From an uncultured Candidatus Sumerlaeota bacterium (GTDB taxonomy: Bacteria > Sumerlaeota > Sumerlaeia > UBA8349): a stretch of 64,000 bases of DNA. Below the pieces are notes generated by a model. It saw only the letters and a list, made by a program, of their open reading frames with translations. It did no database searches and had not been told where the DNA came from. Every line of letters begins with the position of its first letter. Position 1 is the first letter of the stretch. The position numbers and the translations under genes are program-made. Shown in pieces: positions 5,413 through 27,720 of the stretch. Location of the stretch: positions 5,738-69,737 of the forward strand of contig CAYWYC010000001.1 of NCBI GenBank assembly GCA_964462565.1, written 5' to 3'.

Positions 5413-6150
5413 TCAGAACCACGGAGAACCCGATGCCCGGCGGATATGCAAATCGTCGATCACGCTTTTACCCTTGAACTGCAAAAGAAAGAGAATGAGC
5501 TCGGCGATTTCTTCCGGGCGCATCAGGATATCCTTGTCCAAATCGGGCCGCGCCTGTTCGACCATGTCCGTATCCACGCCGCCGGGGCAAAGCGTGTGTA
5601 CGCGAATCCCGTAATCCTGGACTTCCTGGGCCAAGGTCTTGGAATAACCCATCATGGCATGTTTGCTGGCGGCATAGATGCTCTGGTTGACATAGCCCTT
5701 GATGCCGACGACGGAGGCAATATTGATGATAAAACCACCGCCCGCCTTGCGCATGGGACAGATGGCGTCGCGACACAGGAAAAATGGCGCGCGCGCGTTG
5801 ATACGCATCATTTGGTCCCATTCATCGGGCTGGGCCTTTTCCACGGGGCCATATATGCCGATTCCCGCATTATTGATCAAAATATCCAGACAGCCAAAGG
5901 TCTCGATAACGCGCGGAACGATCTTGAGCAAATCCTCGTCTTTGCCCAAATCAACCTGCAGGCAAAAGGCCTCGGTTCCTGCGTTTTGAATCTCTTGCGC
6001 CACCGATTCCAGCTTCTCCCGGTTGCGTGCCGCCAGGACCACCTTCGCACCTGCCTTGCCCAAGGCCAGCGCGACAGCTTTTCCGATCCCCCGGCTTGCG
6101 CCGGTTACCAACGCTACTTTCCCATCCAGAAATTTCCCATAATCGGCCAT
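5413..6150 (-). CDS. short-chain dehydrogenase/reductase (SDR, 3-oxoacyl-ACP reductase-like)
   Basis: VALVTGASRGIGKAVA Rossmann motif and the YAASKHA catalytic Y-x3-K. The start is moved to the internal MADYGKF Met (6150), which is the first Met before the Rossmann fold. Confidence 0.85.
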   Translation of the reverse strand: MADYGKFLDGKVALVTGASRGIGKAVALALGKAGAKVVLAARNREKLESVAQEIQNAGTEAFCLQVDLGKDEDLLKIVPRVIETFGCLDILINNAGIGIYGPVEKAQPDEWDQMMRINARAPFFLCRDAICPMRKAGGGFIINIASVVGIKGYVNQSIYAASKHAMMGYSKTLAQEVQDYGIRVHTLCPGGVDTDMVEQARPDLDKDILMRPEEIAELILFLLQFKGKSVIDDLHIRRASGSPWF

Positions 6151-6190
6151 GAATCTGTTTCCTTTCTCCATTTCTGAAAATCTATTCAAA

Positions 6191-7178: not shown

Positions 7179-7775
7179 CTAAAGAACAGCCAGCCAGGCA
7201 ATCTGCATGGAGAGACCCGCTCCAACGGGGATCAGAAAATTGTCGTCGATTTTGAAATTCTGCACTTCAAGAATCGTCGTAACCAGGGCCCCCATAAGAA
7301 TCAACCACATAGGCAAGCCCAGCACAAAAAAGCCGATTCCTGTTCCAATAAAAATACACGCCAGAAAACAGGCAATGCTGCCTTCCAGGCTTTTTCCCTG
7401 GCCGGGTATTTTGTGCCGGCCGAATGGCTTTCCGATCAGAGCCGCAAGGGGATCCCCAATTGCCAAAAAGCACATGGCCACGATAGCCAACTCTCGCTGG
7501 AACAAGAGAATGGTCAGAAAGTAGCCAATCTGCATCCCTGCCTGGCCGCAGAGGTTACGGGTCTCATATTCTTTGAACTGGATAGGGATGGTCGATTGAA
7601 TCCAGGCCTGGAGCGCCGGGTTTGAAAGACGGGCTGCCTCCAGGATCAGGATAAAAGACATCATCATGAAAGAGATGCCCAGCATGGAAGGCCGTTCCAG
7701 GAAGAGGTACAAACAGGGCGTCAACATGCCACCGAAAATATGGTAAACCTTCCTGAGCACTTCTTTTTTATCCAT
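7179..7775 (-). CDS. polytopic membrane CTP-dependent lipid kinase / cytidylyltransferase-like protein (CdsA/DolK/VTE5 superfamily)
   Basis: GDPLAALIGKPFGRHK...KSLEGSIA motif resembles the CTP-binding signature of phytol/dolichol kinase and CdsA-like proteins. The protein is strongly hydrophobic throughout. Confidence 0.45.
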   Translation of the reverse strand: MDKKEVLRKVYHIFGGMLTPCLYLFLERPSMLGISFMMMSFILILEAARLSNPALQAWIQSTIPIQFKEYETRNLCGQAGMQIGYFLTILLFQRELAIVAMCFLAIGDPLAALIGKPFGRHKIPGQGKSLEGSIACFLACIFIGTGIGFFVLGLPMWLILMGALVTTILEVQNFKIDDNFLIPVGAGLSMQIAWLAVL

Positions 7776-11768: not shown

Positions 11769-13550
11769 TCAGGCCAGAGGAATGGACAGCGTAAAACAGC
11801 TTCCCTTTCCGGCCGTGCTTTCCACTCGGATGTCTCCATGATGGGCCAGCGCAATATGCTTGACGATAGCCAGCCCCAAACCGGTCCCACCCAAGGCACG
11901 GCTACGCGCCTTGTCAACCCGATAGAAGCGCTCGAAGATTCGCGTTAGGTGCTTTTCTTCAATCCCGATCCCCTCATCGCGAACACTTATCTCCACCATG
12001 CCTTCTTTCTCAATGGCTTCAATCCAGACGTTTCCGCCTTCTTCGCTGTACTTGACTGCATTGTCGGTGAGATTCACAATTGCCTGCTCCACCAGATGTG
12101 GCTTCATCCTGGCATGAAGATCCGCTTCGCAATGCAGATGCACATGCAGGTTTTTCTCCTGCGCCTGGGGGTCACACATTTCCATGGCCGCGCGCAATAC
12201 CGGACGCACAGCAGCGTGCTCGAGTTCGATAATTTCATCTTCACGACTTTTCTCAATACGCGACAAGGCAAGCAAGTCCTCGATAATGGTGCTGAGCCGG
12301 TTGATGTGCCGCATGACAATTTTCAGAAAGCGTTCGGCATTGGCCTCATCATGGATGGCCCCGTCCAGCAGTGTCTCGACAAAACCCTTGATAGACGTAA
12401 TGGGAGTCCGCAATTCGTGGGAAACATTTCCCACAAAATCGCGCCGCATGTTTTCCAGTTGCTTCACGCGAGTGACATCATGCAGCACCACCAGAATTCC
12501 AATGACATGATCGCTTGGATCAAAAAGAGGGGTGGCGTGGGCGCTGAGTATCTGGTTATCACCGGATGGCGTGAAGACGAATATTTCACCTTCCTGGGGT
12601 GTCCGGCCTTCAAGCGATGCATTAATAAAATCGAGCAGGTCCGGTTTTCGAAATACCTCGGTCACGCCGCGCCCTTCGGCATATTCGGCCGACTCCACCC
12701 CAAGCAGCCGGCAGGCGGCATCGTTAATATCCAGAATCGTCCCATCGTTATCGATAGCCAGGACACTTTCCTTCATGCTCGAAAAAACCGATTCCAGTTC
12801 CTTGAGGTGCTGCAGGATAGTCTGAAGTTTCTGGTCCAGAATATCCGCCATGTTATTCAGCTCCAGGGCCACGGCTTCATATTCAGCAACCGATGAAGAA
12901 CGCAGGCGGCTGCGAAGCCCGTTCCGGCTGATATCCCTTGTCCATAAATGAACTCTGCCGAGAAATTTGCGGACCGGCCAGGCAAGTATAAAACTCAGGC
13001 CGCCAGCCCAAACCAGGGCAAGAAAGATCATAAACGGAAGTGGGGCCCATGGGTGAAAGGCGGGATTGGCAATGCGCTGGTCAGAGCGATAAATCATAAG
13101 AATCCATCTGCCATTATCCTGGGGGACAAAAGGCGATACGAAAACGGCCGCTTCTTGATTGATCGCTTTCAGGTACTGGTAGGTAAAGCAAGTTTGAACG
13201 TTCTGGCCAGTTTGTAAACCAGGCAAATTCATCTGTCCCACAGGAGGCAAATCCTGGCCTGCGGTGTGATACCGAACGACCCCGTTCGCGTCGAACAACA
13301 CAATTTCAGCGTTTATGGCATCAGACCAATCTTCCAGAAAACTCCCCATACCATCGAAATTTACGGATTTATCGTTATCCTGGATAGCATTAATCAGCAA
13401 TACTGCAGACTTACGCAATTCCAATTCAATACCACCGAGTATCCTGGATTGGGTTCTTAAAAAATTCACCCAATTACCGCAATGTAACAGGATCAAAAGG
13501 GCAGGAAAGAGAATGAAAAAAGCATACCAGGAATAGGGCTTTCCTCGCAT
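11769..13550 (-). CDS. sensor histidine kinase, PhoR-like (2 TM helices, periplasmic sensing domain, PAS, HisKA, HATPase)
   Basis: H-box SHELRTPITSIKGF, N box (LTDNAVKY), G box GTGLGLAIVKHI, a PAS segment, and two N-terminal hydrophobic helices flanking a ~150-aa loop. The RBS AAGGA lies upstream. Confidence 0.85.
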   Translation of the reverse strand: MRGKPYSWYAFFILFPALLILLHCGNWVNFLRTQSRILGGIELELRKSAVLLINAIQDNDKSVNFDGMGSFLEDWSDAINAEIVLFDANGVVRYHTAGQDLPPVGQMNLPGLQTGQNVQTCFTYQYLKAINQEAAVFVSPFVPQDNGRWILMIYRSDQRIANPAFHPWAPLPFMIFLALVWAGGLSFILAWPVRKFLGRVHLWTRDISRNGLRSRLRSSSVAEYEAVALELNNMADILDQKLQTILQHLKELESVFSSMKESVLAIDNDGTILDINDAACRLLGVESAEYAEGRGVTEVFRKPDLLDFINASLEGRTPQEGEIFVFTPSGDNQILSAHATPLFDPSDHVIGILVVLHDVTRVKQLENMRRDFVGNVSHELRTPITSIKGFVETLLDGAIHDEANAERFLKIVMRHINRLSTIIEDLLALSRIEKSREDEIIELEHAAVRPVLRAAMEMCDPQAQEKNLHVHLHCEADLHARMKPHLVEQAIVNLTDNAVKYSEEGGNVWIEAIEKEGMVEISVRDEGIGIEEKHLTRIFERFYRVDKARSRALGGTGLGLAIVKHIALAHHGDIRVESTAGKGSCFTLSIPLA

Positions 13551-13556
13551 AAGCCA

Positions 13557-14243
13557 TTATTCCTTGAAGCGATAGCCAACACCACGGACGGTTTGGATGT
13601 ACTTGCCCGCCGGGCCCAGCTTTTTCCGAAGGCCCACCACCTGCACGTCCACCGAGCGATCGGTAACAGGATAATCGTAGCCATGTACGGCATCGACAAT
13701 CTGATAACGGGTAAAGACCCATCCGGGACGACGGGCCAGAAAATGGAGCACACGAAATTCGGTAGCCGTCAGATCGACGGGCTTTTCTTTCACGAAAACC
13801 TGATGCCGGCCGGGATGAATAACCAGATCATGCACCTGAATCGTGGCGTCTTCCTTGCTTGGTTCCTGGATTTTGCGACGAAGCACGGCACGGATACGCG
13901 CCACCAGTATGCGTGGGCTGAAAGGTTTGGGAATATAATCATCAGCTCCCAGCTCCAGGCCAGTGACAACATCGGCCTCCTCGTTTTTTGCCGTGAGCAT
14001 AACGACAGGCACGTTCTTGGCGTTAGTATCGTTTTTGATTGAGCGACATACTTCGAGACCATCCATGCCCGGCAACATCAGATCAAGAATTACCAGATCC
14101 GGTACTTTGGTGCGAATCTCTTTCAGGGCCTCTTCGCCGGATCCCACACCCGTTACCGTATAGCCTTCCTGAGAAAGTTTATATTGGATCAATTCCAGGA
14201 TATCTTCTTCGTCTTCCACCACAAGCACATTTTCTCGTGCCAT
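13557..14243 (-). CDS. OmpR/PhoB-family response regulator
   Basis: Receiver domain (VLVVEDEEDIL, phospho-acceptor Asp in ILDLMLPGMDG, conserved K in IPKPF) plus a winged-helix C-terminus ending RGVGYRFKE. The start is moved to the internal Met (MARENV), which has a GAGGAG RBS upstream. Confidence 0.9.
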   Translation of the reverse strand: MARENVLVVEDEEDILELIQYKLSQEGYTVTGVGSGEEALKEIRTKVPDLVILDLMLPGMDGLEVCRSIKNDTNAKNVPVVMLTAKNEEADVVTGLELGADDYIPKPFSPRILVARIRAVLRRKIQEPSKEDATIQVHDLVIHPGRHQVFVKEKPVDLTATEFRVLHFLARRPGWVFTRYQIVDAVHGYDYPVTDRSVDVQVVGLRKKLGPAGKYIQTVRGVGYRFKE

Positions 14244-14414
14244 ATCTTGCTCCTCACAGCTGCGATTTTCACATCCCCAGCGCCACACCTATCTTCTTCA
14301 CCACAAATTAGCACAATGTTTGTTTGTTGTTACGATCTCATTTGCTAATCTTACACTAACACTCCTTCCCATAGTATGTATTCTCAGTCTTCTATCGCGG
14401 ATTGATATATCGCA

Positions 14415-17400
14415 TTAATGTGGCTTGTCCGGAATGGTCAGGACAAGAGAAAAATAATTATGCGCGGACTGCCTGGCATACAGATTTCCTCCGCAGCATT
14501 GGACGATGCTTTGACAAAAACGAAAACTATTTCGAAAGTCCTTGTATTCCTCCGCCCTTTTTATCTGTGGTATTTCGAATATGTTGACGAGCTCGGCGAC
14601 ATCAATCTCGATATTCCCACAGTTGATTTCAAAAACAAACCCAGCCTGCTGCTTTGGTTCGGTATTCTCAAGCCCGGCTATATTAAGGATTACGATATTG
14701 TCGGAACTCATCATGGCCAAGTCTTTCACCACAATCGCACCTATCCTCTCAAGCCATGGCGACACAGGCTGCTTGGTAGTTTTGTAGATATAGTCTTCCA
14801 TTTTCGACGAGATGATCAATTTATTGCCGAAGATGGAAAGCAGATGGTCCACCTGTTCAGAGATGCTCAATAAGTTTTTCTCGTTCTCGCCGGAATATTG
14901 CATTGCGGCCAGACCATGAAGATGCTGCAATCGTCCGGTGTCGATGTCTGTGTTGTACCCCCCGCCCAGGCATGAAAGCAGAATCTGCATCTGCTGATCG
15001 GCAATGCGTTTCGCCTCCTCTTCTCTGCTCAGTTTCCGCCCCAACGCTCGGCTCCGGTTTTCCAGGACTTCAATCTCGGACTTCAGGATACCCAAGCGCT
15101 CCTGCTCAATAATGTAAGTTGCCACATTCCCCGCAATCGGAATCAGAATACGCATATCTTCCCGGCTCCAGTGTCTCGTTTCGCTGCAACCCAGCGTGAG
15201 AATTCCGAGTAAGCGCCCTTCATCCGTCCTGACGGGCAACGTGACAAAGGCGCGACTGCCAATCCGGCGGCAATATTCTTTCTCGTTGAGGGCGCTATCC
15301 GGGAGTTTCTCAATATCATTAACGCTTAACGCATTTTTCGTATTGATCTGTTCATTGGCCCAGGGCAGGAAGGACATGGGGGTTGGCTTTTCCGACAAAT
15401 CAGGAATACGCTTACCCTTTTGGGCAACGCCATAGATGTATCGGAATGTTTTCTTCTCGTTGTCCGCCGTAAAATAGATACCATGGTCTACATCAAGTTC
15501 ATCGACAAGCAAATCCAATATGGCCGGTATCACTGGTTCTGCTCCTTCCAGGAATATCCGGCTCACCCGCTCCAGAACCTTGAACTGGCGTAAATAATTC
15601 CGTGTCTTCCTCTCTTCTTTCCGTTTCTCCGAAATGTCCCGGACATGCTCAACCGCACTGGTAATATTCCCCCTGGAATCGCGAATGGGATAGCTGCTGA
15701 TTTCGACCCAGCCACAAGGCTTGCTATCCGGGCCCATCTTCTCAACCACGCTGGTTTCTGCTTTACCATTTTTGAAAACATTGAGTGTGGGACAATTGGG
15801 ACAAATGCGATTCCGACTCTGAAAGACTGCGTAGCATTTTTGCCCGATAATGGGATGGCGATGGCGATACCATTCCTGGAGGCAATTGTTCGCCCGAATG
15901 ACATTCATCTCGCGATCAACAACACATATACCGTCCTGGATGGCATTGAGGACACTGTTGATGAATCGCTCACTCTCCCTGGCCTGTTCTTCGGCCCGGC
16001 GCAAAAGTGTAATATCGGCCGCGCTCAGGAGCACAGCCTGCTTTTCCTGATACTCTATCGTCCTGGGAGATAGCTGAAGGTTGCGAATTTCTCCGGAACG
16101 GCATACCAACGAAACCGAAAAAGTTCCGGAGTTGCTATCACCCTTCAGAAGGGAATCCACCCTCTGACGAAAAAGAGCTCTGGATTCGGCGCCCAGAAAT
16201 TCGACAAAATCACGGTTCTTGATCTCTTTCTCATCATAGCCCAGCATCTGGACAAGTGCTTGGTTGCAAAACAGTGCTTTTACTCCGCGAATCAGCAAGA
16301 TCGGTGCTTTTATCGATTCGACCAGCGTGCGGAATTTGGCTCGGCTGGACCTCAACTCTTCCTGTATCGCGATGCGATCATCAATCAGATAAGTTGAGCC
16401 AATTATGCGATGCATTTTTTTCTTTTCGTCGAGTAAAACCGTCAGCCAGTCCTGAAACCAACGGTATATGCCATCTTTCATCTTCCTGCGATATTCAAAG
16501 GCCAGGTTGAATTTTCCACCCGGCGGAGTTTGCCGCGTTTTTTCTTCAAACATCGCCATCACCCTGGGAACATCGTCGGGATGAGAATCGCGCTGAATAT
16601 CTTCGAAAGACATCTGCATGTATTCTTCATTACTCACGCCTGTTACCTTTTCGGCAGATGCACTCAGATACTCGTATTTGTTTTTGGAAACATTATAGCA
16701 AAACACAATGTTATTGGCCGAAGTAAGCACTTCGTTCAGACGCGTTTCACTGACTTGCAAGGCATCCTGCAAGCGTCTCTGTTCGGTCACATCACGGCCG
16801 GCAGCAACGTAGTACTGCAATTCTTTATTATCGTCAACGATGGCCCGGATATGCCACTCTATCCATCGCCAGCCCAGGCGCGTGCGAAAGCGCACCGCTT
16901 CTTTAACAATATATGGTGGCCGCATTACATCATCCCGGCTCTTGTCAACGAGCCCATAATCATCGGGATGGATAAATTCAAAAGGCGAATGTCCGACGAT
17001 TTCAGACTCGGGACGGCCCAGCAAATAAGAAAAGGAAGGGCTGGCAAATTCGAAAATATATTCCGCGCTGACACGTATCACATAATCGAGCTGGTTTTCG
17101 ACGATAGTCCGGTACTTTTCCTCGTTTTCAATCAGATTCTGCTTTATCTGGACGTCTTCGCTGATATCCCATATAGCCGCAATGATACGCATCGGGACAT
17201 CATCCACATCCGGATCTATTGCTTTCGCCTGAATTTTGATCCAGAGCCATTCACCATTGCGATGCCGGAGCCTGACCGTCCCCGAAAAAGATGCTTTTCT
17301 TCCCTGCCGGCAGAGTTGAAACTGTTCCTCAAGTTCTTTCTGATCATCAGAATGTATATAACTGGCGATTACCTCGTCCATACTTTCGGGCAAGCCATTG

Positions 17401-19340
17401 CTTTCATAGCCCGTCATTTCAAAAAACATATCGCTGAAATTCACGGCGCCTGTAAAAACGTTGTATTCCACAAAGCAAAGGCTCGTCACTTCAAGAACCT
17501 TCTGGAGGCGGGAATCTTCGTTATCAAGAAACTTCTCCAGGCGCCTGGTATTGGTAATATCGCGAAACACGAGAATGACGGCCTTCTCGCCGTTTTGTTC
17601 GATAACAGACGCTGAGATGGAAGCAAGAAAGCGTGTGCCGTCGAAGCGGGTAGCCCAGATATCATAATGAACGGGGACGCTTTCATCTCCGCTCAGCCTT
17701 CTCTGGTAAAAGTCATTTGCGTAATCACGATACTCCGCCGTGATCACCTCAAGCATGTTCCTGCCGATAATCTGTTCGCGGCTGTCGGCACGCATCATCT
17801 GAACGCCCACATCATTTATATACACGCATTTGGCATCCTGCAGAAGGACCATGCCATGGGGAAAAGCCTCCACCATCATGCGATAGTCCAAATCTTGCCT
17901 GTGGCCCTGCTTTTCCAGCCACTTGAGCAGGGCCTTGCCCTTCAGCAAACCCGAATCCGCCATCAGGGCATCCCAATCTCTCAGGCTGTCTCCCTTGAGA
18001 TGCTTCCGGGCTTCCATCAGCGATACTTCCGCCTGTTTACGGTCGGTAATATCCTGATGCATCGTGATGACATGATTAACCTGCCCCATGTCATCACGAA
18101 GTGAAAATACCGTCCCCATTATGCATTGGGGATCCGGATCGCGCTTGGAATCGGCCGGAGGATGAAGCCAGAATTCGGATTGAATAGAATGGACTTCCCC
18201 TTTCATAAGGCCAACGAGATCGCGGAAGACGGGCGACTTCTGAAGAACGGGGTCCTTGAATATCGTATAGTCTTGGGGAATCGGGGCCGGGAATATAGAA
18301 CGGAAAGAATCGTTGCATTCCACCAGACGGCCTTCTCCATCGTAAATCGCGATACTGAAAGGATTGCGTGCGATAATCTGTTCGAGAAGGCGATGTTCCC
18401 GATCCAGGTTTTTTTCCACGATCCGATGCTCGGTAATATCAAAGGTGAATCCCACTGCCCCGATGATAGTCTTGTCTTCATAAACAGGGGCCATGATGGA
18501 ACGCATAAAAACAGGAGCATCTTTGATTACATAGTCGAATTCGGAAATTATGGTGTCGCCGGCCAGAACGCGCAGAAAGTTCTGCATACACTCCTGCTTC
18601 TCTTCGCCTTCCACATTTATGGCATCCAGCGTTTTGCCCCGGTTATCACCCCACATCTCGATAGAACCCTTATTCTGGTAAACCACAATCCCGTCCGCAT
18701 TGATCTGGTAGCAATGAACGGGAAGGAAATCCATGAATTTGGTGAAATACTGGGATTCGGGTTTCTGCACCAACGACTTTTGGGAACCGGCCAGTATTCG
18801 GGCCATCCTCAAGGCGAGAGATTCCACTACGCTACGAAGATATTCGGGAAAAGCATTGGCTTCCGAGTGGCTGAGGTTCAGAACACCCATTACCTCGTCA
18901 TTAATCACTAAGGCCTGGCTGATAAGAGACTTGATGGAAACCTTCGCGCTGCCGCCGTCCTTAAACATTTCGCTTTGAGCAGTATCGGCAATGAACATGC
19001 CGCTTTTGTGCTCCCAGGCTTTTCCGGCTATACCCTCGCCGCTTCGAAAAGCCTTCCCCACCCATTGTTCGTTTTCATATCGTCGGGGTTCCAGATCATT
19101 TTTGCCAAAGGCAAAGCGCAAGCGACATTCATCCTGGTTGATGAGCATAACCGAGCCATTTTCGGCCGGCGAATACTGGATTATCACAGAAAGCAGGCGG
19201 GCAATCTTATCCATGGCCCGCGCGGAGCCATTCTCAATGCCTTCCATTTCAAGCCCCATCTTGAGATAGGCTTCCACAGACCCTACGGAATCATAACTGC
19301 CGGCGGTCGATTCGGGTTTCGCGTTATCCATAAATATCAT
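14415..19340 (-). CDS. large cytoplasmic signalling protein: N-terminal GAF, multiple tandem PAS/PAC domains, C-terminal GAF and a degenerate histidine-kinase-like (HATPase-like) tail
   Basis: 1641 aa with no TM segments. PAS-like modules recur every ~120 aa. GAF-like regions sit at both ends. The final ~120 aa (FRFCQSIVQCCGGNLYARQ...SLVLTIP) resemble the ATP-lid/G2 region of HATPase_c, but without the GxGLGL glycines or a clear H-box. Confidence 0.8.
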   Translation of the reverse strand: MIFMDNAKPESTAGSYDSVGSVEAYLKMGLEMEGIENGSARAMDKIARLLSVIIQYSPAENGSVMLINQDECRLRFAFGKNDLEPRRYENEQWVGKAFRSGEGIAGKAWEHKSGMFIADTAQSEMFKDGGSAKVSIKSLISQALVINDEVMGVLNLSHSEANAFPEYLRSVVESLALRMARILAGSQKSLVQKPESQYFTKFMDFLPVHCYQINADGIVVYQNKGSIEMWGDNRGKTLDAINVEGEEKQECMQNFLRVLAGDTIISEFDYVIKDAPVFMRSIMAPVYEDKTIIGAVGFTFDITEHRIVEKNLDREHRLLEQIIARNPFSIAIYDGEGRLVECNDSFRSIFPAPIPQDYTIFKDPVLQKSPVFRDLVGLMKGEVHSIQSEFWLHPPADSKRDPDPQCIMGTVFSLRDDMGQVNHVITMHQDITDRKQAEVSLMEARKHLKGDSLRDWDALMADSGLLKGKALLKWLEKQGHRQDLDYRMMVEAFPHGMVLLQDAKCVYINDVGVQMMRADSREQIIGRNMLEVITAEYRDYANDFYQRRLSGDESVPVHYDIWATRFDGTRFLASISASVIEQNGEKAVILVFRDITNTRRLEKFLDNEDSRLQKVLEVTSLCFVEYNVFTGAVNFSDMFFEMTGYESNGLPESMDEVIASYIHSDDQKELEEQFQLCRQGRKASFSGTVRLRHRNGEWLWIKIQAKAIDPDVDDVPMRIIAAIWDISEDVQIKQNLIENEEKYRTIVENQLDYVIRVSAEYIFEFASPSFSYLLGRPESEIVGHSPFEFIHPDDYGLVDKSRDDVMRPPYIVKEAVRFRTRLGWRWIEWHIRAIVDDNKELQYYVAAGRDVTEQRRLQDALQVSETRLNEVLTSANNIVFCYNVSKNKYEYLSASAEKVTGVSNEEYMQMSFEDIQRDSHPDDVPRVMAMFEEKTRQTPPGGKFNLAFEYRRKMKDGIYRWFQDWLTVLLDEKKKMHRIIGSTYLIDDRIAIQEELRSSRAKFRTLVESIKAPILLIRGVKALFCNQALVQMLGYDEKEIKNRDFVEFLGAESRALFRQRVDSLLKGDSNSGTFSVSLVCRSGEIRNLQLSPRTIEYQEKQAVLLSAADITLLRRAEEQARESERFINSVLNAIQDGICVVDREMNVIRANNCLQEWYRHRHPIIGQKCYAVFQSRNRICPNCPTLNVFKNGKAETSVVEKMGPDSKPCGWVEISSYPIRDSRGNITSAVEHVRDISEKRKEERKTRNYLRQFKVLERVSRIFLEGAEPVIPAILDLLVDELDVDHGIYFTADNEKKTFRYIYGVAQKGKRIPDLSEKPTPMSFLPWANEQINTKNALSVNDIEKLPDSALNEKEYCRRIGSRAFVTLPVRTDEGRLLGILTLGCSETRHWSREDMRILIPIAGNVATYIIEQERLGILKSEIEVLENRSRALGRKLSREEEAKRIADQQMQILLSCLGGGYNTDIDTGRLQHLHGLAAMQYSGENEKNLLSISEQVDHLLSIFGNKLIISSKMEDYIYKTTKQPVSPWLERIGAIVVKDLAMMSSDNIVILNIAGLENTEPKQQAGFVFEINCGNIEIDVAELVNIFEIPQIKRAEEYKDFRNSFRFCQSIVQCCGGNLYARQSAHNYFSLVLTIPDKPH

Positions 19341-19412: not shown

Positions 19413-20048
19413 TTACTCCAAAGCCATCTGAATATCTTTCTCAAAATGGGTCATGATCCTCGAAAAGGCCTCATTCCATCCGGCTACGAGCGATTCCGGC
19501 TCGCGCTCCTGGATCGGAAAACGGGCGACATAATTTTTCTGCAGCACCACTTCCGACTCGGGCTTGCTCGTATTTACCAGAAGAAACTGCAATTCGATTA
19601 GCGCCAGCGGACTTTCCGGATTGCGATAATCGCCGTGCAGACTGACGATATTCGCTTCAATCACATAGTCGGGCAGGATCACGCTGCCGGAATCGAGCAC
19701 ATTCCGAAATATACCGGACTCTGAAACCCAGTCCCGGGTCTGGCTCAGAATCATATCCTCCGGCGTGATAAAGAAGACATTATAAAAATCCGATTCGTAC
19801 TGATAGTTGCTGAGACGATAAACAAATTCCCCTTTTTCATAGCGCTGGGAAATCAGAAACGGGCGCAGGCTTACCGACCCAGCCAGAGGCTCCATGACCA
19901 GGGGCCCGCCCGGACGTTCCACGTCTATCAGGAAAGAACGACGCTCCGGATATTCCTGCTTGAAGACCACACAGGCAGCACTTGCCGCCAGGATAATCAC
20001 CAGGACTGGAATCGATAAAACATGTCTGTAAACCAACGATCGCTTCAT
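19413..20048 (-). CDS. lipoprotein, ABC-type transport auxiliary component (PqiC/YmbA-like)
   Basis: Signal peptide ending in Cys (LAASAAC). Size ~210 aa. It is translationally coupled (4-bp overlap) to the upstream MCE gene, as in PqiB-PqiC/Mla-like operons. Confidence 0.55.
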   Translation of the reverse strand: MKRSLVYRHVLSIPVLVIILAASAACVVFKQEYPERRSFLIDVERPGGPLVMEPLAGSVSLRPFLISQRYEKGEFVYRLSNYQYESDFYNVFFITPEDMILSQTRDWVSESGIFRNVLDSGSVILPDYVIEANIVSLHGDYRNPESPLALIELQFLLVNTSKPESEVVLQKNYVARFPIQEREPESLVAGWNEAFSRIMTHFEKDIQMALE

Positions 20049-21193
20049 GGTCTTACCTTTATGTCATTGCGCTTTGGGGGTTCGCCAAAGAAAAAGCCCG
20101 ACGGATACTTCCGGGCGTCGTTGATGAGCTCCTTGATTTCCTGAGAACTTCGTGCCAGATTCTCGACGATCAACTCAAAATTACGCTGCTGGTTCAAGAC
20201 GATTCGATCCAGCCTGCTCAGAGTCTTGCGAAAATGCGTCAACGAAGCCTCCAGGTCGCCGGAACTCGTGAGTGCTTCGAGACGTTGGGAAGCACTGCTC
20301 AAACTCTCGGATGCCTCCTTCAGGTTCTGCATAATGCGCGCCAGGTCCTCGCCGTCCACAATCTCCTTCGCGCCTTCTACCGTCGTGGAGGCATCGGTCA
20401 GGAGTTTCTCGATCTTGGGATCGGTCAGGATGGTCTGGAGGTGTTCGTTCGATTTTTTGATATCGGCGATCAGATTGCTGGTTTCATTATGAAGCTTGGC
20501 AAACTGCAAGTCATCGATCTGCTTGCCGGCCTTTGCAATGAGTTCCGACGCTTCATCATGCAACTTAGCCAGGCGCGCGCCCGAAAGTCCCGTCTTCAGT
20601 TCCATCAGCACATCATTCAGGTTGGTGAAGAGCTCTCCGAGTTCCATGTTCTCGAATTTGCTCAATATTTTTTCGAAAGAATCGCTGATTCGCGAGATGG
20701 TGCTGGGCACAGAAGGAATATAAGGATATTCCGGTACCCACTCAGGCTGGAAAAAGGTAAAACGTTCTGTATCCACGTAATCGAGTTCAACGTAAAAAGC
20801 GCCGGTAATGCCCTGGGGCCTCATACGAACGCGCAAGCCGTTTTCGATTTCCGGTTGAAGCGCGTCATACAGAAGTTTCCGGGCATCCTCCAGACCAAAG
20901 GGCTTGGGATCGATATTCATGCGGATAAGCACATAGCGCAAACCTTCTTCATGGGCCTCGCGATAATAGTTATACACAAAATCGATAGTCTTGATATTGC
21001 CGACCTGGACACCCCGGTAGCGCACCGCCGATCCGATATCAAGCCCCTGAACCGATTGGTCGAGGTAGGTTTCTACGACAATCCTTTGCTTAAGCAATAC
21101 ATCGGCGCCCAGGACCACCAGCGCCAGGATAGCGATAATGACCGCCATGATCACAAATATACCGACTTTGTAGTAGTTTGCAGTTGTCGTCAT
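20045..21193 (-). CDS. MCE-domain protein (MlaD/PqiB-like) with C-terminal coiled-coil extension
   Basis: N-terminal TM anchor followed by a conserved MCE core (YLDQSVQGLDIGSAVRYRGVQVGNIKTIDF). The C-terminal ~150 aa are heptad/coiled-coil-like, with repeated AKLHDEASELIAKAG / AKLHNETSNLIADIK segments. Confidence 0.8.
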   Translation of the reverse strand: MTTTANYYKVGIFVIMAVIIAILALVVLGADVLLKQRIVVETYLDQSVQGLDIGSAVRYRGVQVGNIKTIDFVYNYYREAHEEGLRYVLIRMNIDPKPFGLEDARKLLYDALQPEIENGLRVRMRPQGITGAFYVELDYVDTERFTFFQPEWVPEYPYIPSVPSTISRISDSFEKILSKFENMELGELFTNLNDVLMELKTGLSGARLAKLHDEASELIAKAGKQIDDLQFAKLHNETSNLIADIKKSNEHLQTILTDPKIEKLLTDASTTVEGAKEIVDGEDLARIMQNLKEASESLSSASQRLEALTSSGDLEASLTHFRKTLSRLDRIVLNQQRNFELIVENLARSSQEIKELINDARKYPSGFFFGEPPKRNDIKVRP

Positions 21194-22083
21194 ATGAACC
21201 AGTCAGGCTCCTCTTCAGCGGCGCTTTCCTTGCGTCCGCCTCCATTATGATCGTCATCTTTTCGGACATTGTCAACACCGGCCTGCCTCTGAAAAAACTG
21301 GCGCACCCACGGATTCTGGCTGCGATCGCGCAACTGGCTGGGCACTCCCCTGGCGATAATCCCCTTGGTCCGTTTGTCGAGCATAATAACACGATCGGCA
21401 ATCTCGAAAATGCTGGCCAACTCATGGCTGACCACGACAAAGGTAATGCCGAGATTATCGGCCAACCGCTTGATGAGGGAGTCCAGTTCGGCCGAGGTAA
21501 TAGGATCCAATCCGGCCGATGGTTCGTCCAGAAAAATGATCTCCGGGTCCAAAGCCATGGCCCGGGCGATGGACGCGCGCTTCTGCATACCACCACTGAT
21601 CTCCGCCGGATAATGATGGCAGAATCCCTCAAGCCCGACCAGTTTGAGCTTGGTCAGCGCGATCAGGTTCATGGCTTCCATCGGCAGGTCCGTGAATTCT
21701 TCCAGCGGCAGGCGCACATTCTCTACCAGATTCATGGAACCGAAAAGCGCCCCGCTCTGGTAAGTCACACCGAAGGAAGACAAAAGTTTCAGGCGTTCCT
21801 CGGTGGAGGCGTTGGCAATGTCGATCCCTTTTATATATATACTCCCTTTGGCCGGCTGATAGAGCCCAATCATGTGCTTGAGCAAAGTACTTTTGCCGCA
21901 GCCTGATCCGCCGAGTATCACAAAGACCTCTCCCGGATAGACACAAAAATTAATGTCCCGGATAATGACGTCGTCCCCATAGGCGGCCATAATATCAACA
22001 ACCCGAATAAGGGCATCGTCTTCCCCCCGACAATCCTGCTTGTCGGCAAAAGCGTCAGTGCTTGGCTTTTCAGAAAGGGCCAT
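21190..22083 (-). CDS. ABC transporter ATP-binding protein, MlaF-like
   Basis: Walker A GGSGCGKST, signature ISGGMQKRASIARA, Walker B IIFLDEPSAGLD. It overlaps the MCE gene by 4 bp. Confidence 0.85.
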   Translation of the reverse strand: MALSEKPSTDAFADKQDCRGEDDALIRVVDIMAAYGDDVIIRDINFCVYPGEVFVILGGSGCGKSTLLKHMIGLYQPAKGSIYIKGIDIANASTEERLKLLSSFGVTYQSGALFGSMNLVENVRLPLEEFTDLPMEAMNLIALTKLKLVGLEGFCHHYPAEISGGMQKRASIARAMALDPEIIFLDEPSAGLDPITSAELDSLIKRLADNLGITFVVVSHELASIFEIADRVIMLDKRTKGIIARGVPSQLRDRSQNPWVRQFFQRQAGVDNVRKDDDHNGGGRKESAAEEEPDWFI

Positions 22084-22101: not shown

Positions 22102-22836
22102 TTATCCCTTCATGCAGGCAAAAGTAATCATGCGTCCCGTACCGGATCCATCCCTGCGATAAGAAAAGAAGAGGTCGGACGCTTCATAGGTGCATCGCCG
22201 GTCCAGAAGAATTTGCGATTTTGGAATTCCCGCCTCGATCAACTCGTAATAATTAATCAAGCCAAGGTCCAGATATCGCGACTCCGGGCCGACAACAGCC
22301 CCTTCATAGTGCCCGAAGGCGCGCTCAAATTCAATCGCCATCTCACGACTGACTTCATAATGATCCGCGCAGATTGACGGGGCGACCCAGGCATGGATAT
22401 TCGATATCTCCGCGCCATTCTCTGTCATGCGATCAAGCGCCCGCAGGACTATGTGACCGGCAACGCCTTTTCGTCCGGCATGAACCACGGCAATGACCCG
22501 ATTCACGGGATCGCCCAAAACAACAGGTACACAGTCCGCCGTATAAACGCCGAGTAAAACAGATGCACGATTGCAGACCAGAGCGTCCACGTTGGGGATT
22601 TCCGTCAAGCCGCTGCAATACGCCGTCTCTTCCACCAATGCGACATCCGTTCCGTGCACCTGCTCCCCCACGATGGCAGGAACCTTCGATATTCCCAGGA
22701 AGTCCGGCAACCTGCGCATAGTATCCAGTCGGTCTTCGGAAAGATCCGGCATGAAGGAACGACAACTCATGCCGACAAGCATGACATCCTGAAAAGGCGC
22801 GAAGATTTCGGGATAGATCACTTTTTGTTCGCTCAT
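22102..22836 (-). CDS. pgeF: peptidoglycan editing factor PgeF (YfiH/DUF152, purine nucleoside phosphorylase-like laccase-domain protein)
   Basis: Conserved HAGRKG and CxxC...H motifs (TADCVPVV, HAGRKGVAGHIV) of the YfiH family. Length 244 aa. Confidence 0.8.
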   Translation of the reverse strand: MSEQKVIYPEIFAPFQDVMLVGMSCRSFMPDLSEDRLDTMRRLPDFLGISKVPAIVGEQVHGTDVALVEETAYCSGLTEIPNVDALVCNRASVLLGVYTADCVPVVLGDPVNRVIAVVHAGRKGVAGHIVLRALDRMTENGAEISNIHAWVAPSICADHYEVSREMAIEFERAFGHYEGAVVGPESRYLDLGLINYYELIEAGIPKSQILLDRRCTYEASDLFFSYRRDGSGTGRMITFACMKG

Positions 22837-25367
22837 TCAGAGCTCTCCCGTGCCGGAGTTTCAGGGCTTGTCGTGGTCTCATCATCATCGGACAGGAGCA
22901 CATCATCCAAAATGTCCTGCATCTGCTTATCGATTGTTCCGGTCATGGGTCGTTCTGGGTTAAGGGCTTTTCCCGGTTCTCGCGAATCCGGCTGGTTCTC
23001 CGGATTAACCGGGGCAAAAACCCGCGCCTTTTGCAGGAATCGCTCCGTTTCTTCCGAATTGGAACTCAACTGAGCCCGGATACGCCAGTAATCTTCCGCC
23101 GGCGGAAAAGCCATATCCAAATACTTCCGCGCTTCCCGCTTAAGACCGAGATCGCTGAACATATTCGTATATTCATAAACCAGGGCGACATGCGTGGGCG
23201 ATTTCTCCGTGAGTTTTCCCAGGGCTTCCCGCTTTTCTTCGGCACTATCGGCAGTACGCAACATCCCGAGCCATCCCGCGTGAAGATCACGCAAAGTCAG
23301 CTGTTGGTAGTAGTATCGCGCTTCTTCCTGATCTCCCTGCCGCCGGAGAGTTTCGGCAATGTAAAAATACGTCAGCGCGTCATCATCGTCTTCAGCAAGC
23401 GTCTGTAAATCCGGGGCCACGGGCGAAGGTGAAACGAGGGACCCGCCGGATCCGACGATTGCGCGCAGACGCAAATGGGCCCTGCGGGTATCTCCGGGAA
23501 TGTCTGACCGCAGCAGAAGCACGTTCAGACCAATGAGCAAAGTGATAATACCAATGCCGAATACGCGCAGGATGTAATACCGTCGGACCACCGGCAAAAT
23601 ATGACGCGTGGCTACCCAGACAAGGGTCGGAAAAAAGAGTACGAGCAGGAGCAGGCTGACCAGGGTTTCCAGGGGTGGCGGACTTTGCGTCAGGAACCGC
23701 ACCAGAATGGAGTCGCCGAAATAGGACATGGGACGCTTGAAGATGGATTCGCTGAAAAACTGCCAGGTCTTGACATCCCACGGCCAGGGACTGATTTCAA
23801 AGGGCGATTTCTGGTGGGTAATCGTAATGCAAAGGGTCCAGGCTGCAACGACACAGAGAAAAAGCGCCAGAACCGTTTGGGTGCTGCGGAAACGAACCTC
23901 CAGAAAAAGCTGCGCCAGACCAAGGGCGACAAAGGGAACGAGAATCGCATAACGCCCCAACCAAATGGCTTCGGTCGCCTGCCATTGCCAGGAAAGATTC
24001 GTTATGAGAACGTACAAAATAACGGCCAGAAAAGCCCCGCCCCCAATCAGACTGCGGCGCAGAGCCATCAGAAGAAGGCCGAGCAAGCCAAGCGAGGCCA
24101 AAGGGAACCAATAAAAAAAACCGCCCGTTTGTCCCAGAACCGCCTCAAGAGCGCGCAAACCGGATATGTGGGCAAACTCACCAAAAGTGGTGATGTCTTG
24201 GGGAATCCTGGGCAAAAGCACATAACTGTCGAAGGCTTTTTTCCAATAGATCATTTGCGGGGAGAAAATCAGAAGCAAAACCGAGCAAATCACCAGAAAA
24301 ATGCCGGCATACCGCAAGACTGCTTTCAGACGCGCCGGCTTTTCAGGTGGTCGGGTTTCCACCGCAAGGGGTTCCAGATCCTGAACTTCCGGTACCGGCA
24401 TTTCACTGCTTCCAAGACTTGTTTCATCAGCGCTGGCACCAGAGAAAAAGTCCGATGCTCCTCCTGCTTCATTCAGCGTGTCAGGCATATCCTCTGTCAG
24501 GGGCTCAAAATCAGCATCGATGACAGGCGTTTCAGCCTCCTTGTCTGAGGAAAAGGAACTCACGCCTGCGTCGGCCTCGGGCGTTTGATCAGGCGGAACT
24601 CCTTCAGCCGACATGATTTCAGTACCACCCGTTCTTTTTTCTAACCAGACGCCAAGCGGAACCAAAAAAAAGACAAAACTGCGCCAATCGCAAAGAAGCA
24701 TAAGCCCCGCCGCGAGGATAATATAAAAGGCAAAGCTCCCCTTGTGACGTCGTGTGCTTTCAATACAGGCATAAAGGAAAAGCGCTCCGGCAGACATGGC
24801 GTAAACCGGAGAAAAAGCGACGGCCTTATAACTGACCAGAACTGCCGATGTACCGAAAAGAGATACCAAACCCACGACAAGCGCTGCCGGCGATGGAATA
24901 AAACGGAATGCCGTCCGCCATATCAGCAATATGGCGCAAAAACCATAAAAGAGAGACGACAGCGAAGAGGCATAAAGATAATGCGGCGCAAAACGGTCGC
25001 CTTCACCCGCCAGCTTTAAAAGAATTCCCAGGCCGTGAAAAAGCAGCCAGAAAGGCGCGATGAGAATAGGCGGCCCCAATGGATAGGCTTCGGCCACATA
25101 TCCGGTGGGGCTGATCTTTTCCGCCGCCGTTTCCGGAACATCGAGCGGATTGCGGGCCATGAGATGCTCATTGGCCAAATCCACATTGCCATCCAGCAAA
25201 AGCGAGGCGATGAATTGGTTGTGAAAAACCGGAGCATATCCATCTCCCCGCCAGGGGTCAAACCAGAGAAAGATGCCAATGGCATAAAAGACCGCGAGAA
25301 TAATAAGAGGAAAGGCATGCTTGCGATGATGAATACGGGGGAAGTGGAACAAGCCTTTGACCTTCAT
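22833..25367 (-). CDS. polytopic membrane protein with a GT-C-like N-terminal multi-TM region, an internal acidic low-complexity insert, and a C-terminal TPR-like tail (DUF2723/ArnT-PMT-like candidate glycosyltransferase)
   Basis: At least 10 hydrophobic helices in two blocks, separated by a D/E/S/P-rich ~110-aa segment. C-terminal helical repeats (YFYIAETLRRQGDQEEARYYYQQ...) look TPR-like. The start is set at the internal Met MKVKGLF to avoid overlapping the upstream gene. Confidence 0.45.
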   Translation of the reverse strand: MKVKGLFHFPRIHHRKHAFPLIILAVFYAIGIFLWFDPWRGDGYAPVFHNQFIASLLLDGNVDLANEHLMARNPLDVPETAAEKISPTGYVAEAYPLGPPILIAPFWLLFHGLGILLKLAGEGDRFAPHYLYASSLSSLFYGFCAILLIWRTAFRFIPSPAALVVGLVSLFGTSAVLVSYKAVAFSPVYAMSAGALFLYACIESTRRHKGSFAFYIILAAGLMLLCDWRSFVFFLVPLGVWLEKRTGGTEIMSAEGVPPDQTPEADAGVSSFSSDKEAETPVIDADFEPLTEDMPDTLNEAGGASDFFSGASADETSLGSSEMPVPEVQDLEPLAVETRPPEKPARLKAVLRYAGIFLVICSVLLLIFSPQMIYWKKAFDSYVLLPRIPQDITTFGEFAHISGLRALEAVLGQTGGFFYWFPLASLGLLGLLLMALRRSLIGGGAFLAVILYVLITNLSWQWQATEAIWLGRYAILVPFVALGLAQLFLEVRFRSTQTVLALFLCVVAAWTLCITITHQKSPFEISPWPWDVKTWQFFSESIFKRPMSYFGDSILVRFLTQSPPPLETLVSLLLLVLFFPTLVWVATRHILPVVRRYYILRVFGIGIITLLIGLNVLLLRSDIPGDTRRAHLRLRAIVGSGGSLVSPSPVAPDLQTLAEDDDDALTYFYIAETLRRQGDQEEARYYYQQLTLRDLHAGWLGMLRTADSAEEKREALGKLTEKSPTHVALVYEYTNMFSDLGLKREARKYLDMAFPPAEDYWRIRAQLSSNSEETERFLQKARVFAPVNPENQPDSREPGKALNPERPMTGTIDKQMQDILDDVLLSDDDETTTSPETPARESSE

Positions 25368-25401
25368 GATATTCCTGTTCAAGATAAGGGAGTCAGCAGG
25401 A

Positions 25402-27720
25402 TCAGCGTCGGCTTCTGAGATACATAACGCCACTGAAAAGCACACAAATCATGAGGACAATATACCACTTGTAATTCCAGAGCGCGTCAGCCAAGGCCGC
25501 TGGCAGGAGTCTTCGCAACCAGCGACGAACTGGATTATTGATCCATTTTTCTTCCGGCTTCTCCGCACTTCGCTTCAGGTCGCGCACGTAATCCTGAGAA
25601 AATTCTGCAGGAATTAAAACGTCTTCGGGCGGTATTTCTTCCACGCTTGTGTCTTCCAACTCGTCCGTAGCCGGGGCCTGGGTTTCTTCCGGTTCCAGGA
25701 GTTGGTCAATGACTTCGGGCAACTGAAAATCGTCATTCTCGCCATCATTATTGGAATCCGCGTCTTTCGTGTCTTCCGGCAGACCGGTTTCGAACATCTG
25801 GGCATAGCGTTTTTCATATTCGGAGGAACGGGTCCGGCTGCTTGGACGCGACTTCAGTTCAATGGACCTTTCCTGCCTGTCATCTCTTTCAAAATCTCCG
25901 GAATGGTCGAGCCCCCGCATTTCGCGCAGACCTTCCGCCCCTGTCTTGAATCTTTCCGGAACCGCGACATCGGCATTGCGCAACATACGCGTCCCCACGT
26001 CAGTGGGGTCATTGGCAACCAGCGCCACATGCCCTCTGTCTTCATAACTCGGCCACAGCGGCACATCCATAACCGGATACTTCTGCCAGTTCGGCGCGTC
26101 ATAATGCCACCACTCGGAAAGAATGGTGGTGAAGCCCTCACGGGCCATAACGCGGGTCAGGAATTCGCGATTTTTCTCGGCTGCTTCCGAAACATTATCG
26201 TAATCACGTCGAGCCTCTTCCCCCATGCGCAGGTAGGGCGATTGCATCTCCAATTCATTGCCCTGCATATCGGTAATCGTGCAATCCACCGCCGCGCCGC
26301 GATTATGCCTTGAACCCCGGTTCGGCACGGCCAGATAAGGGGTTCCGGGGAGTTTGTGATACAATTTCTGCGTGATGGAGAGCGGCCTATAAGCGTCAAA
26401 AAGTTTCAGGCGCATCCCCCGGTCACGCAGGCGCTGATTGATGCGCATGATGGCTTCAGCCACCTCGGGCCGCAGCAGAAAACGGGGACGCTCATAAAGC
26501 ACTTCTCCCACAAAAGTCGTGTTTGTCGTCCAATATTGCTCCGTCAGAATTGTGGGATCCAGCTTTTCTACATCCACCAGCACAGGCGTTTCATACAGGT
26601 CGTATTCCACCACTTCATCAATGGCGAAAACGTTGAAATGAGAACGTCTGGCCGTGCTGCCTTCTAGTAATTCACGAACCGAACTGACTTTCGGCGTGTG
26701 CAAGTCATTGTCATTGCGGACAGAATCCCACATCTCGGAAACCGGTATGGAAGGATCGTAAATGGGCTCATTGTCATAGAACTCGGCACAGTGAATTCTT
26801 ACCAGAAAAGGCTGATCCTGTCTGGATAATTCCTTTTCCGAAAAAAAGCGTTGCGACAGTTCACGAGCAGTCGTGGAATCGGCATTCTTCTTGACGACAA
26901 GAGCCGCAAAGAGAACGCTGGTGTCGTTCTTTTCGATGGGCGAAAAGAAAAAGCGATCCTCCTGTTCGGGATCGTATGTTTCCGTCATCGGCTCCCCGGC
27001 TGCAGGCGAACGGCGCAGGGATTGCCCACGCATCAGGCCGAGATCGGCCATGCCAGACACAATCCAGGCATCGGCATGCGGTGCTTCCCGCACGGCCCGA
27101 TATAGCATTGCATTAAAGTCCAGAGGATATTGGTATCCACTGTCGTATAAAATGCGCGCCGAAACCCGAGCGTCCTTGGTAACACCTACCGCCCAAGCCA
27201 GACGAGCGAAGGATTCATAGGAAAAAGAAGCACGGTCGAGTTTCTCGCTCGTTGTGCGCAGGCTGAGCCGCTCCCCTACCGATACAAACCAGCCGGCGGA
27301 ATCTTCGCGATAAACGGTAGCAAGTCCCAGCGCCGCCTTGATTTCAGAAGGGCTGGCCGGAGCAAAATCGGCCAGTTTCATCTTCCCCGAAGTCATGAAC
27401 TCCCAGCTTCCCCATACAAAAGCCGAACTCCGCGATTCCGGGTTATGCTGAAGCAACTGCCAGACCATATTGCCCTCCTGGTTTTGCCATTCCATGGACG
27501 ACGCCTCCAGATCGGGTGATTTTTTGGGCGTACCCGCATATTTCCAGACACTCGAGGGAGTCGAATCATCCTCGACCGAATTTTCCGAAGCGATATCCAT
27601 GGGAGGAAGGGCCAGTTCGGGAGAAGTCCCTTGTGAAAAAGAAACAGATGGCCAAACACACGACACCACCGCAAGGCAAACCAATGCCAGACATTGCGAC
27701 AGGCATCGGACCAGGGGCAT
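25402..27720 (-). CDS. secreted, membrane-tethered protein with a large N-terminal domain of unknown function plus a VanX-like D-Ala-D-Ala dipeptidase (peptidase M15D) domain. An acidic linker and a C-terminal TM anchor follow.
   Basis: Signal peptide MPLVRCLSQCLALVCLAVVSCVWPSVSFSQG. VanX signature FDAYRP...SRHNRGAAVD...SEWWHYD (zinc ligands His/Asp/His and catalytic Glu). D/E-rich tail, then the hydrophobic WYIVLMICVLFSGVMYL followed by basic residues. The start is at the internal Met preceding the signal peptide. Confidence 0.7.
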   Translation of the reverse strand: MPLVRCLSQCLALVCLAVVSCVWPSVSFSQGTSPELALPPMDIASENSVEDDSTPSSVWKYAGTPKKSPDLEASSMEWQNQEGNMVWQLLQHNPESRSSAFVWGSWEFMTSGKMKLADFAPASPSEIKAALGLATVYREDSAGWFVSVGERLSLRTTSEKLDRASFSYESFARLAWAVGVTKDARVSARILYDSGYQYPLDFNAMLYRAVREAPHADAWIVSGMADLGLMRGQSLRRSPAAGEPMTETYDPEQEDRFFFSPIEKNDTSVLFAALVVKKNADSTTARELSQRFFSEKELSRQDQPFLVRIHCAEFYDNEPIYDPSIPVSEMWDSVRNDNDLHTPKVSSVRELLEGSTARRSHFNVFAIDEVVEYDLYETPVLVDVEKLDPTILTEQYWTTNTTFVGEVLYERPRFLLRPEVAEAIMRINQRLRDRGMRLKLFDAYRPLSITQKLYHKLPGTPYLAVPNRGSRHNRGAAVDCTITDMQGNELEMQSPYLRMGEEARRDYDNVSEAAEKNREFLTRVMAREGFTTILSEWWHYDAPNWQKYPVMDVPLWPSYEDRGHVALVANDPTDVGTRMLRNADVAVPERFKTGAEGLREMRGLDHSGDFERDDRQERSIELKSRPSSRTRSSEYEKRYAQMFETGLPEDTKDADSNNDGENDDFQLPEVIDQLLEPEETQAPATDELEDTSVEEIPPEDVLIPAEFSQDYVRDLKRSAEKPEEKWINNPVRRWLRRLLPAALADALWNYKWYIVLMICVLFSGVMYLRSRR

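Follow-up and report, generated by a model that had tools for sequence, protein, structure and literature searches.

A soluble PAS/GAF multi-sensor protein of a Candidatus Sumerlaeota bacterium with a possible histidine pseudokinase tail

We analyzed a 64,000-nucleotide stretch of DNA (the window) from an uncultured Candidatus Sumerlaeota bacterium (assembly GCA_964462565.1, contig CAYWYC010000001.1, forward-strand positions 5,738 to 69,737), and within it a gene for a soluble protein of 1641 amino acids that lies directly upstream of genes for a response regulator and a membrane histidine kinase. We lean, if only slightly, toward reading this gene as a real, cytoplasmic, lineage-specific multi-sensor whose C-terminal tail is what remains of a HisKA-type transmitter after extreme divergence, that is, a non-catalytic pseudo-kinase. 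For the tail by itself, comparison of sequences gives moderate confidence that it is a very degenerate HisKA-type transmitter remnant, and high confidence that it is not a working kinase. An earlier reading of the same DNA (the original prediction) had described a degenerate kinase tail and had proposed, in addition, that the protein forms a three-component system with its two neighbors.

Sensor domains of the 1641-residue protein

Pfam, run once on the full length and again on ten slices that overlap, resolved a GAF domain, eight PAS domains, and a second GAF domain ahead of the tail (Table 1). The PAS domains lie at residues 206-306, 327-436, 494-596, 634-721, 749-856, 891-982, 1002-1101, and 1131-1240; seven of them exceed the Pfam gathering score, and the second (327-436) reaches 22.0 bits against a cut-off of 23.1. 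The NCBIfam model TIGR00229 matches six stretches of the protein. No transmembrane helix was found, the maximum 19-residue Kyte-Doolittle mean being 1.36, as compared with 2.2 in the neighboring kinase. The length of 1641 residues, the lack of a transmembrane helix, and the presence of at least eight PAS and two GAF domains, all part of the original prediction, were thus confirmed by translation, Pfam, and hydropathy. NCBI has an entry for an identical protein under the name [quoted passage not shown] (MAG, metagenome-assembled genome).

The same 13-kb segment was found on an independent Logan assembly, SRR11308339, at 99.95% identity, and the gene caller applied to that contig yields products of 1638, 228, and 593 amino acids for the three genes, with Met4 as the start of the large protein. 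Across the 13 kb there are six differences in total between the window and the Logan contig. Three of these (17673, 17676, and 17679) fall inside the large gene, all of them synonymous, at the consecutive third positions of codons 554-556 (Ser, Val, and Pro). With only six differences in the whole segment, so tight a cluster of three suggests a small patch of recombination or of another haplotype, or else a variant of assembly.

The eighth PAS domain carries a cluster of cysteines between residues 1139 and 1209 (15714-15926, minus strand), namely C1139, C1153, C1169, C1180, C1183, and C1209, which contains a C-x10-C-P-N-C motif and has no counterpart in the other PAS domains of the protein. 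The cluster might bind a metal or form an Fe-S/redox site.

Homology of the C-terminal tail

By conventional searches, the tail is an orphan. The last ~230 residues have no Pfam match even at E<=10, with HATPase_c, HATPase_c_2/_3/_5, and HisKA included, and neither HisKA nor HATPase_c is matched by the full-length protein. Among PDB sequences, the tail matched the calcium-binding domain of NCX1 only, at chance level (E 0.04-0.9), and this candidate was rejected. When 1.84 billion representative proteins were searched exhaustively with phmmer, the tail recovered itself and nothing else. For the whole protein, no orthologue was present in 5.8 billion clusters, the next-best match having 34% identity over 11% of the query. 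A word-indexed search with the tail alone returned zero matches and so missed even the tail's own protein, although the database contains it in full; negatives from this kind of search are therefore unreliable by themselves for short orphan queries. Most of the nearest multi-PAS relatives of the large protein carry HisKA and HATPase_c domains in Pfam. Four "PAS-only" relatives (P0023, P0066, P0085, and P0110) were considered and rejected as carriers of a comparable tail, their C-termini being further PAS domains or a Cys-rich motif.

A more sensitive comparison did return a signal. We built a profile from 69 HisKA-type DHp-CA modules of relatives, with the neighboring kinase's own module as the seed sequence, and aligned the tail to it with hhalign. 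The whole tail aligned over 227 collinear columns with a score of 27.1 (P 0.0016-0.0022), a score that none of 200 shuffled tails reached (mean 13.9, standard deviation 2.5, maximum 24.6). The CA half alone gave P 0.001 over 119 columns, at a probability of 21%. Controls run with hhalign were all negative, whether the tail was reversed (P 0.35), the histidine kinase profile was reversed (P 0.095), or the tail was set against profiles of HD-GYP (P 0.31), HisKA_3 kinases (P 0.2), HWE kinases (P 0.45), or the large protein's own PAS domains (P 0.58). Further, a MAFFT alignment of the tail with 26 kinase modules reproduced the register, and the motif substitutions, seen with hhalign. The segment SIVQCCGGNLYARQ, quoted in the original prediction as the ATP lid, is the sole piece of the tail that HMMER aligned locally to the profile; it does align to histidine kinases, but past the G2 box, at the next helix and strand, and not to the ATP lid proper.

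Set in this register, the catalytic motifs are gone. Thr1464 occupies the column of the phospho-acceptor His in both alignments (NTDIDTGRL under (S/A)HELRxPL), and His1473 and His1475, which lie 9 and 11 residues downstream, stand outside any H-box context. The N-box retains its first Asn (N1553); the Mg-binding Asn is replaced by Leu1557 or falls in a gap. In place of the G1 motif DxGxG the tail reads C1574-G-N-I-E1578, and in place of the G2 motif GxGLGL, D1601-F-R-N-S-F1606. What is retained is the F-box IFE (F1588), an h-G-G-x-I motif (G1617 and G1618), and the terminal L-x-I-P. The CA-like part is ~25 residues shorter than that of the neighboring kinase, with the loss in the N-box half. 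Provided that the alignment to histidine kinases is accepted, the catalytic residues have clearly been lost. With substitutions at the His, the Mg-binding Asn, the Asp and glycines of G1, and every glycine of G2, the tail would be expected neither to bind ATP nor to autophosphorylate. The claim of a degenerate (pseudo-)kinase tail that lacks a His box and GxGLGL is therefore supported, by hhalign statistics that are weak but specific and by the register that MAFFT shares.

Proposed role and points against it

If the tail is what we propose, a signaling helix would lead into DHp-like helices and then into a CA-like alpha/beta domain of reduced length. Changes that ligands or redox state bring about in the PAS and GAF domains might then pass down the helical linker to a dimeric DHp-like bundle. 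By analogy with DivL or PsmA (discussed later), this bundle might alter how it contacts a partner protein, for which the adjacent PhoB/PhoR-like pair is one candidate among many.

Structure prediction added little. Without an alignment, AlphaFold2 (AF2) placed a helix at residues 1402-1459, after the second GAF domain, with a predicted local distance difference test score (pLDDT) of 69-86, and the order of elements that follows (helix-strand-strand-helix-helix-strand) fits a CA domain, at low confidence; this order is the one feature of the model compatible with a Bergerat alpha/beta sandwich. When 26 kinase rows were supplied, the mean pLDDT rose to 69, with means of ~59-88 for the DHp helices and the 1560-1640 block. 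Foldseek matched this second model to HK853, a bacteriophytochrome kinase, RetS, CpxA, and DivL in the PDB (E 5e-5 to 1e-3, TM-score ~0.3).

A number of results weigh against a transmitter origin of the tail. The AF2 model made with kinase rows, and the Foldseek matches that it gave, were not counted as evidence, because the alignment had supplied the fold and the argument would be circular; even in this model, residues 1508-1558 (the N-box half) have pLDDT <50, and the model made without an alignment has a tail pLDDT of 37.7 and is unusable. The DHp half alone does not match the histidine kinase profile significantly (P 0.095), the hhalign probability of 13-21% marks a weak homology signal, and the corresponding HMMER profile of the 69 modules scored the tail at 1.3 bits, a value reached by 105 of 2000 shuffles and hence not significant. 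A profile restricted to the PhoR family gave P 0.2. Finally, the tail is represented by one sequence only, too few for selection on it to be shown by conservation or by dN/dS (the ratio of nonsynonymous to synonymous substitution rates).

These results lend some weight to a different reading, in which a coiled coil and a small alpha/beta domain make up a novel, lineage-specific domain for output or oligomerization, whose likeness to HATPase_c is convergent or due to chance. Such a domain would account for a tail with no homologue in Pfam, the PDB, or the protein databases, for an HMMER profile that fails to reach significance and an hhalign probability below 25%, and for a region that is ~25 residues short of a canonical CA domain and whose N-box half cannot be modeled even with the kinase alignment. 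It accounts less well for an hhalign signal that is specific to HisKA/HATPase_c, runs collinearly through the whole tail, and disappears with reversed sequences and with each of five control profiles. Nor would it be expected to present the landmarks of a kinase module (NI..., IFE, hGG-x-I/L, and a terminal LxIP) in the right order and spacing, in a protein most of whose nearest multi-PAS relatives carry HisKA and HATPase_c. We consider a novel domain unlikely, but the foremost of the alternatives.

Relationship to the downstream two-component pair

The original prediction had also placed a response regulator and a membrane PhoR-like kinase downstream of the large gene on the same strand, and both were confirmed (Table 1). 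The response regulator scores 262.7 bits against the PhoB model TIGR02154, below its cut-off of 296.2. The kinase scores 398.1 bits against PnpS, just below the cut-off of 400; it has canonical H, N, G1, F, and G2 motifs, and its Kyte-Doolittle mean peaks at two sites, at up to 2.2. Together the two genes appear to form an ordinary, self-sufficient two-component system of the PhoB/PhoR type. The ~140-residue extracytoplasmic loop of the kinase (residues 30-170) gave a weak sCache-like hint (20.2 bits against a cut-off of 27), and no HAMP domain was matched at residues 190-250, whereas nearly all homologues are recorded with HAMP (PF00672).

Homologues of the kinase number in the thousands. The best have ~50% identity over the cytoplasmic part, a few have 39-41% over the full length, and those with an organism name come mostly from Planctomycetota. 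In the three homologue loci inspected, which are of Planctomycetota type, the regulator-kinase pair was kept in every case, the genes upstream were unrelated, and in none did a multi-PAS gene precede the pair. One of the three, which encodes a full-length homologue at 41% identity, continues after the pair with pstS-pstC-pstA-pstB-phoU. Matches to the kinase in GTDB genomes were discarded as a source of synteny, since they included no close relatives and reached only 27-33% identity, in unrelated phyla. In a Thermoguttaceae relative, a Ser/Thr protein kinase fused to PAS (L008, 1953-3845) lies ~4.4 kb upstream of phoB-phoR-pstSCAB-phoU; it is not adjacent to the pho cluster and is not homologous to the large protein described here.

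Between the large gene and the regulator gene lies an AT-rich spacer, which the original prediction gave as ~130 bp. That figure holds approximately (126 bp) if the regulator starts at the alternative GTG at 14288, but the gene caller uses the ATG at 14243, behind a GAGGAG ribosome-binding site, which makes the spacer 171 bp. Simple scans of its minus strand found no terminator-like or sigma-70-like pattern, and no family of Pho-box-like direct repeats was found in it. Given its length, its AT-richness, and the separate ribosome-binding site of the regulator, the spacer may nonetheless contain a promoter for the regulator alone. An inverted repeat in the spacer (ATTAGCA-N29-TGCTAAT, 14307-14349) has 7-nt arms, a pair of which is expected about by chance in 200 bp.

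Is the large protein wired to this pair? The three-component arrangement in question would have a pseudo-kinase integrate cytoplasmic signals and modulate the adjacent PhoR-like kinase through a heterodimer of the RetS-GacS type, or bind the PhoB-like regulator, as DivL binds DivK~P. The position of the large gene directly upstream and on the same strand, the lack of a terminator-like pattern in the 171-bp spacer, and the precedents for control of kinases by kinases and of regulators by pseudokinases are all in keeping with it. Set against these are (i) synteny, which is not conserved, and cannot be in a protein without orthologues, while the three inspected kinase loci keep the pair only; (ii) the long AT-rich spacer, with the possibility of a separate promoter; and (iii) the setting of the genes, for all listed open reading frames of at least 180 amino acids on the minus strand from 27798 to 11769 share the strand of the large gene, and because this whole 16-kb stretch is co-directional, the common orientation of the gene and the pair is uninformative, or at best weak evidence. 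Further, no similarity between the tail and its neighbor's DHp-CA module could be detected (BLASTP E 0.57; P 0.2 with the PhoR-family profile). A tail derived by duplication of the neighboring kinase was rejected on these two values, and the tail is thus not a diverged duplicate primed for heterodimerization.

We judge the three-component arrangement improbable. More doubtful still is its boldest form, a de novo Pho circuit unique to this Sumerlaeia lineage, in which the DHp/CA remnant would dock on the PhoR-like kinase or the PhoB-like regulator and bring up to ten cytoplasmic inputs (redox, metal, and small ligands) into control of the phosphate regulon. Beyond adjacency, nothing links the large protein to the PhoB/PhoR-like pair, and a link between them is not supported. 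The main lesson as it stands is one of caution against multi-component circuits inferred from adjacency alone.

Loss of function or overlooked function

The diverged tail could also be an evolutionary relic: an orphan multi-PAS kinase that has lost its kinase function, whose tail drifts without any signaling output, and whose gene is heading for loss. A tail that has diverged past recognition beside PAS and GAF domains that are still clearly recognizable, in a singleton gene without an orthologue, is what such decay might leave behind. Conversely, the 4.9-kb open reading frame has no stop, with ~230 open codons in the tail itself; GC content at third codon positions is much the same in the tail (0.59) as elsewhere in the gene (0.54-0.58); the polymorphisms seen in the gene are all synonymous; and well-preserved sensors would be pointless without an output. 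Decay of this kind seems to us quite improbable. Two artefactual or foreign origins of the tail, a recent insert and a frameshift, were rejected, given the match in third-position GC content and given that none of the five remaining frames of 14200-15300 encodes a canonical kinase.

That the protein is an ordinary functional sensor kinase whose motifs were overlooked, a thought prompted by its typical cytoplasmic kinase layout (a PAS/GAF array and a C-terminal module of ~230 residues), is effectively refuted: HisKA and HATPase_c are undetected even at E<=10, two independent alignments both show substitutions at the His, at the catalytic Asn, and in G1 and G2, intact H, N, G1, and G2 boxes are clearly absent from the hidden Markov model alignment of the tail, and no other frame encodes a canonical module.

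Genomic setting

The features of the locus are collected in Table 1. The window is ordinary chromosome. Its genes include lepA, dnaJ, mfd, leuS, pfk, and pgi, together with an Mla-like ABC operon, but neither pst nor phoU was found in its 64 kb. The Mla-like operon includes an ABC ATPase gene (21190-22083) and an MlaD-like gene (20045-21193), and is closed by an open reading frame of 211 amino acids (19413-20048, minus strand) 72 bp upstream of the large sensor gene. At the other end of the locus, the kinase gene (minus strand, end 11769) and mfd (plus strand, end 11763) converge with 5 bp between their stop codons, which leaves no space for a conventional terminator of either gene. Five sizeable open reading frames lack a Pfam match. 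At E<=1e-3, these are the frames at 22833-25445 (minus, 870 amino acids), 19413-20048 (the 211-residue frame just named), 7179-7775 (minus, 198 amino acids), and 5446-6177 (plus, 243 amino acids); that at 59419-60972 (plus, 517 amino acids) has no Pfam match at E<=1e-5.

Table 1. Features of the multi-sensor gene and the downstream pair, in window coordinates.
Feature	Position	Strand	Basis or content
Soluble multi-sensor protein, 1641 aa (GAF, eight PAS, GAF, degenerate transmitter-like tail)	14415..19340	-	Open reading frame, translation, Pfam/NCBIfam; stop codon 14415-14417
N-terminal GAF, residues 48-183	18792..19199	-	GAF_2, 48.2 bits on slice
Eight-PAS array, residues 206-1240	15621..18725	-	Slice-by-slice Pfam
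Second GAF, residues 1270-1408	15117..15533	-	GAF, 43.7 bits
Linker helix and putative DHp-like helical region, residues 1409-1515	14796..15116	-	AF2 helix, hhalign, MAFFT
Putative degenerate CA (HATPase_c-like) region, residues 1516-1641	14418..14795	-	hhalign, MAFFT
AT-rich spacer, 171 bp, large gene to response regulator	14244..14414	-	Ribosome-binding site GAGGAG before ATG 14243
OmpR/PhoB-family response regulator, 228 aa from ATG	13557..14243	-	Response_reg and Trans_reg_C
PhoR/PnpS-like membrane histidine kinase, 593 aa	11769..13550	-	Two transmembrane segments, extracytoplasmic loop, PAS, HisKA, HATPase_c

Comparison with known systems

The downstream pair has the domain order of PhoR-PhoB and PnpS-PnpR and near-threshold NCBIfam scores. 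It differs from them in that both scores fall under the equivalog cut-offs, in its ~140-residue extracytoplasmic loop and lack of a HAMP match, and in having no pst or phoU gene within the window.

The nearest database relatives of the large protein are canonical cytoplasmic multi-PAS/GAF sensor histidine kinases (for example P0002-P0020), which share its sensor architecture and the position of the C-terminal module and have 20-34% identity to it within the PAS and GAF regions. In these kinases, HisKA or HisKA_3 and HATPase_c score above the Pfam thresholds, whereas the large protein has neither.

Three systems in which a kinase-like protein acts by contact with a partner bear on the roles proposed. 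In Pseudomonas, the histidine kinase-like protein RetS modulates the bona fide kinase GacS by heterodimerization of DHp domains, in a kinase-kinase control that also involves PA1611 (PMC12189002; PDB 6dk7), and the RetS-GacS pair is the model behind the three-component idea. RetS, however, is a membrane hybrid kinase with recognizable HisKA and HATPase_c domains, is not encoded beside gacS, and has an interaction that was shown experimentally, whereas the protein described here, known from its sequence alone, has no DHp similarity to the neighboring kinase. In Caulobacter, the PAS domains of DivL tune phospho-specific binding of DivK (PMC4211667). DivL (PDB 4q20) resembles the large protein in its multiple PAS domains and probably in its C-terminal histidine kinase-like module, and it works without kinase activity. 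In DivL, only the His has changed, to Tyr, and the H, N, G1, F, and G2 motifs are retained; it is also membrane anchored, essential, and conserved in alpha-proteobacteria, unlike the large protein, which is a singleton and appears to have lost every catalytic motif.

A further parallel is PsmA of Streptomyces (Vnz18495/SCO4009), in which tandem PAS domains precede a DHp/CA region without the His and the ATP motifs; the protein has no autokinase activity and acts by binding DivIVA (PMC12963549). Like the large protein, PsmA is annotated only as a "PAS domain S-box protein", is cytoplasmic, and has tandem PAS domains; the catalytically stripped DHp/CA that follows them probably has its counterpart in the tail. 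The two differ in that PsmA keeps weak HisKA similarity, is found throughout the Streptomycetaceae with conserved synteny, has a known partner in DivIVA, and bears a long disordered linker and a C-terminal receiver. The large protein has eight PAS and two GAF domains, no receiver, no detectable orthologue, and a tail under every sequence-family threshold.

Should the tail prove to work as a pseudo-kinase, it would be an extreme case of a transmitter that has shed all its catalytic motifs and still serves as a signaling output, and it would mean that annotations such as "PAS domain S-box protein" can conceal kinase-derived outputs that are no longer recognizable. Bacterial PAS-linked histidine pseudokinases have already been described, and PsmA shows the combined loss of the His and the ATP motifs; beside them, this singleton from one metagenome-assembled genome would stand as a further and unusually degenerate example.

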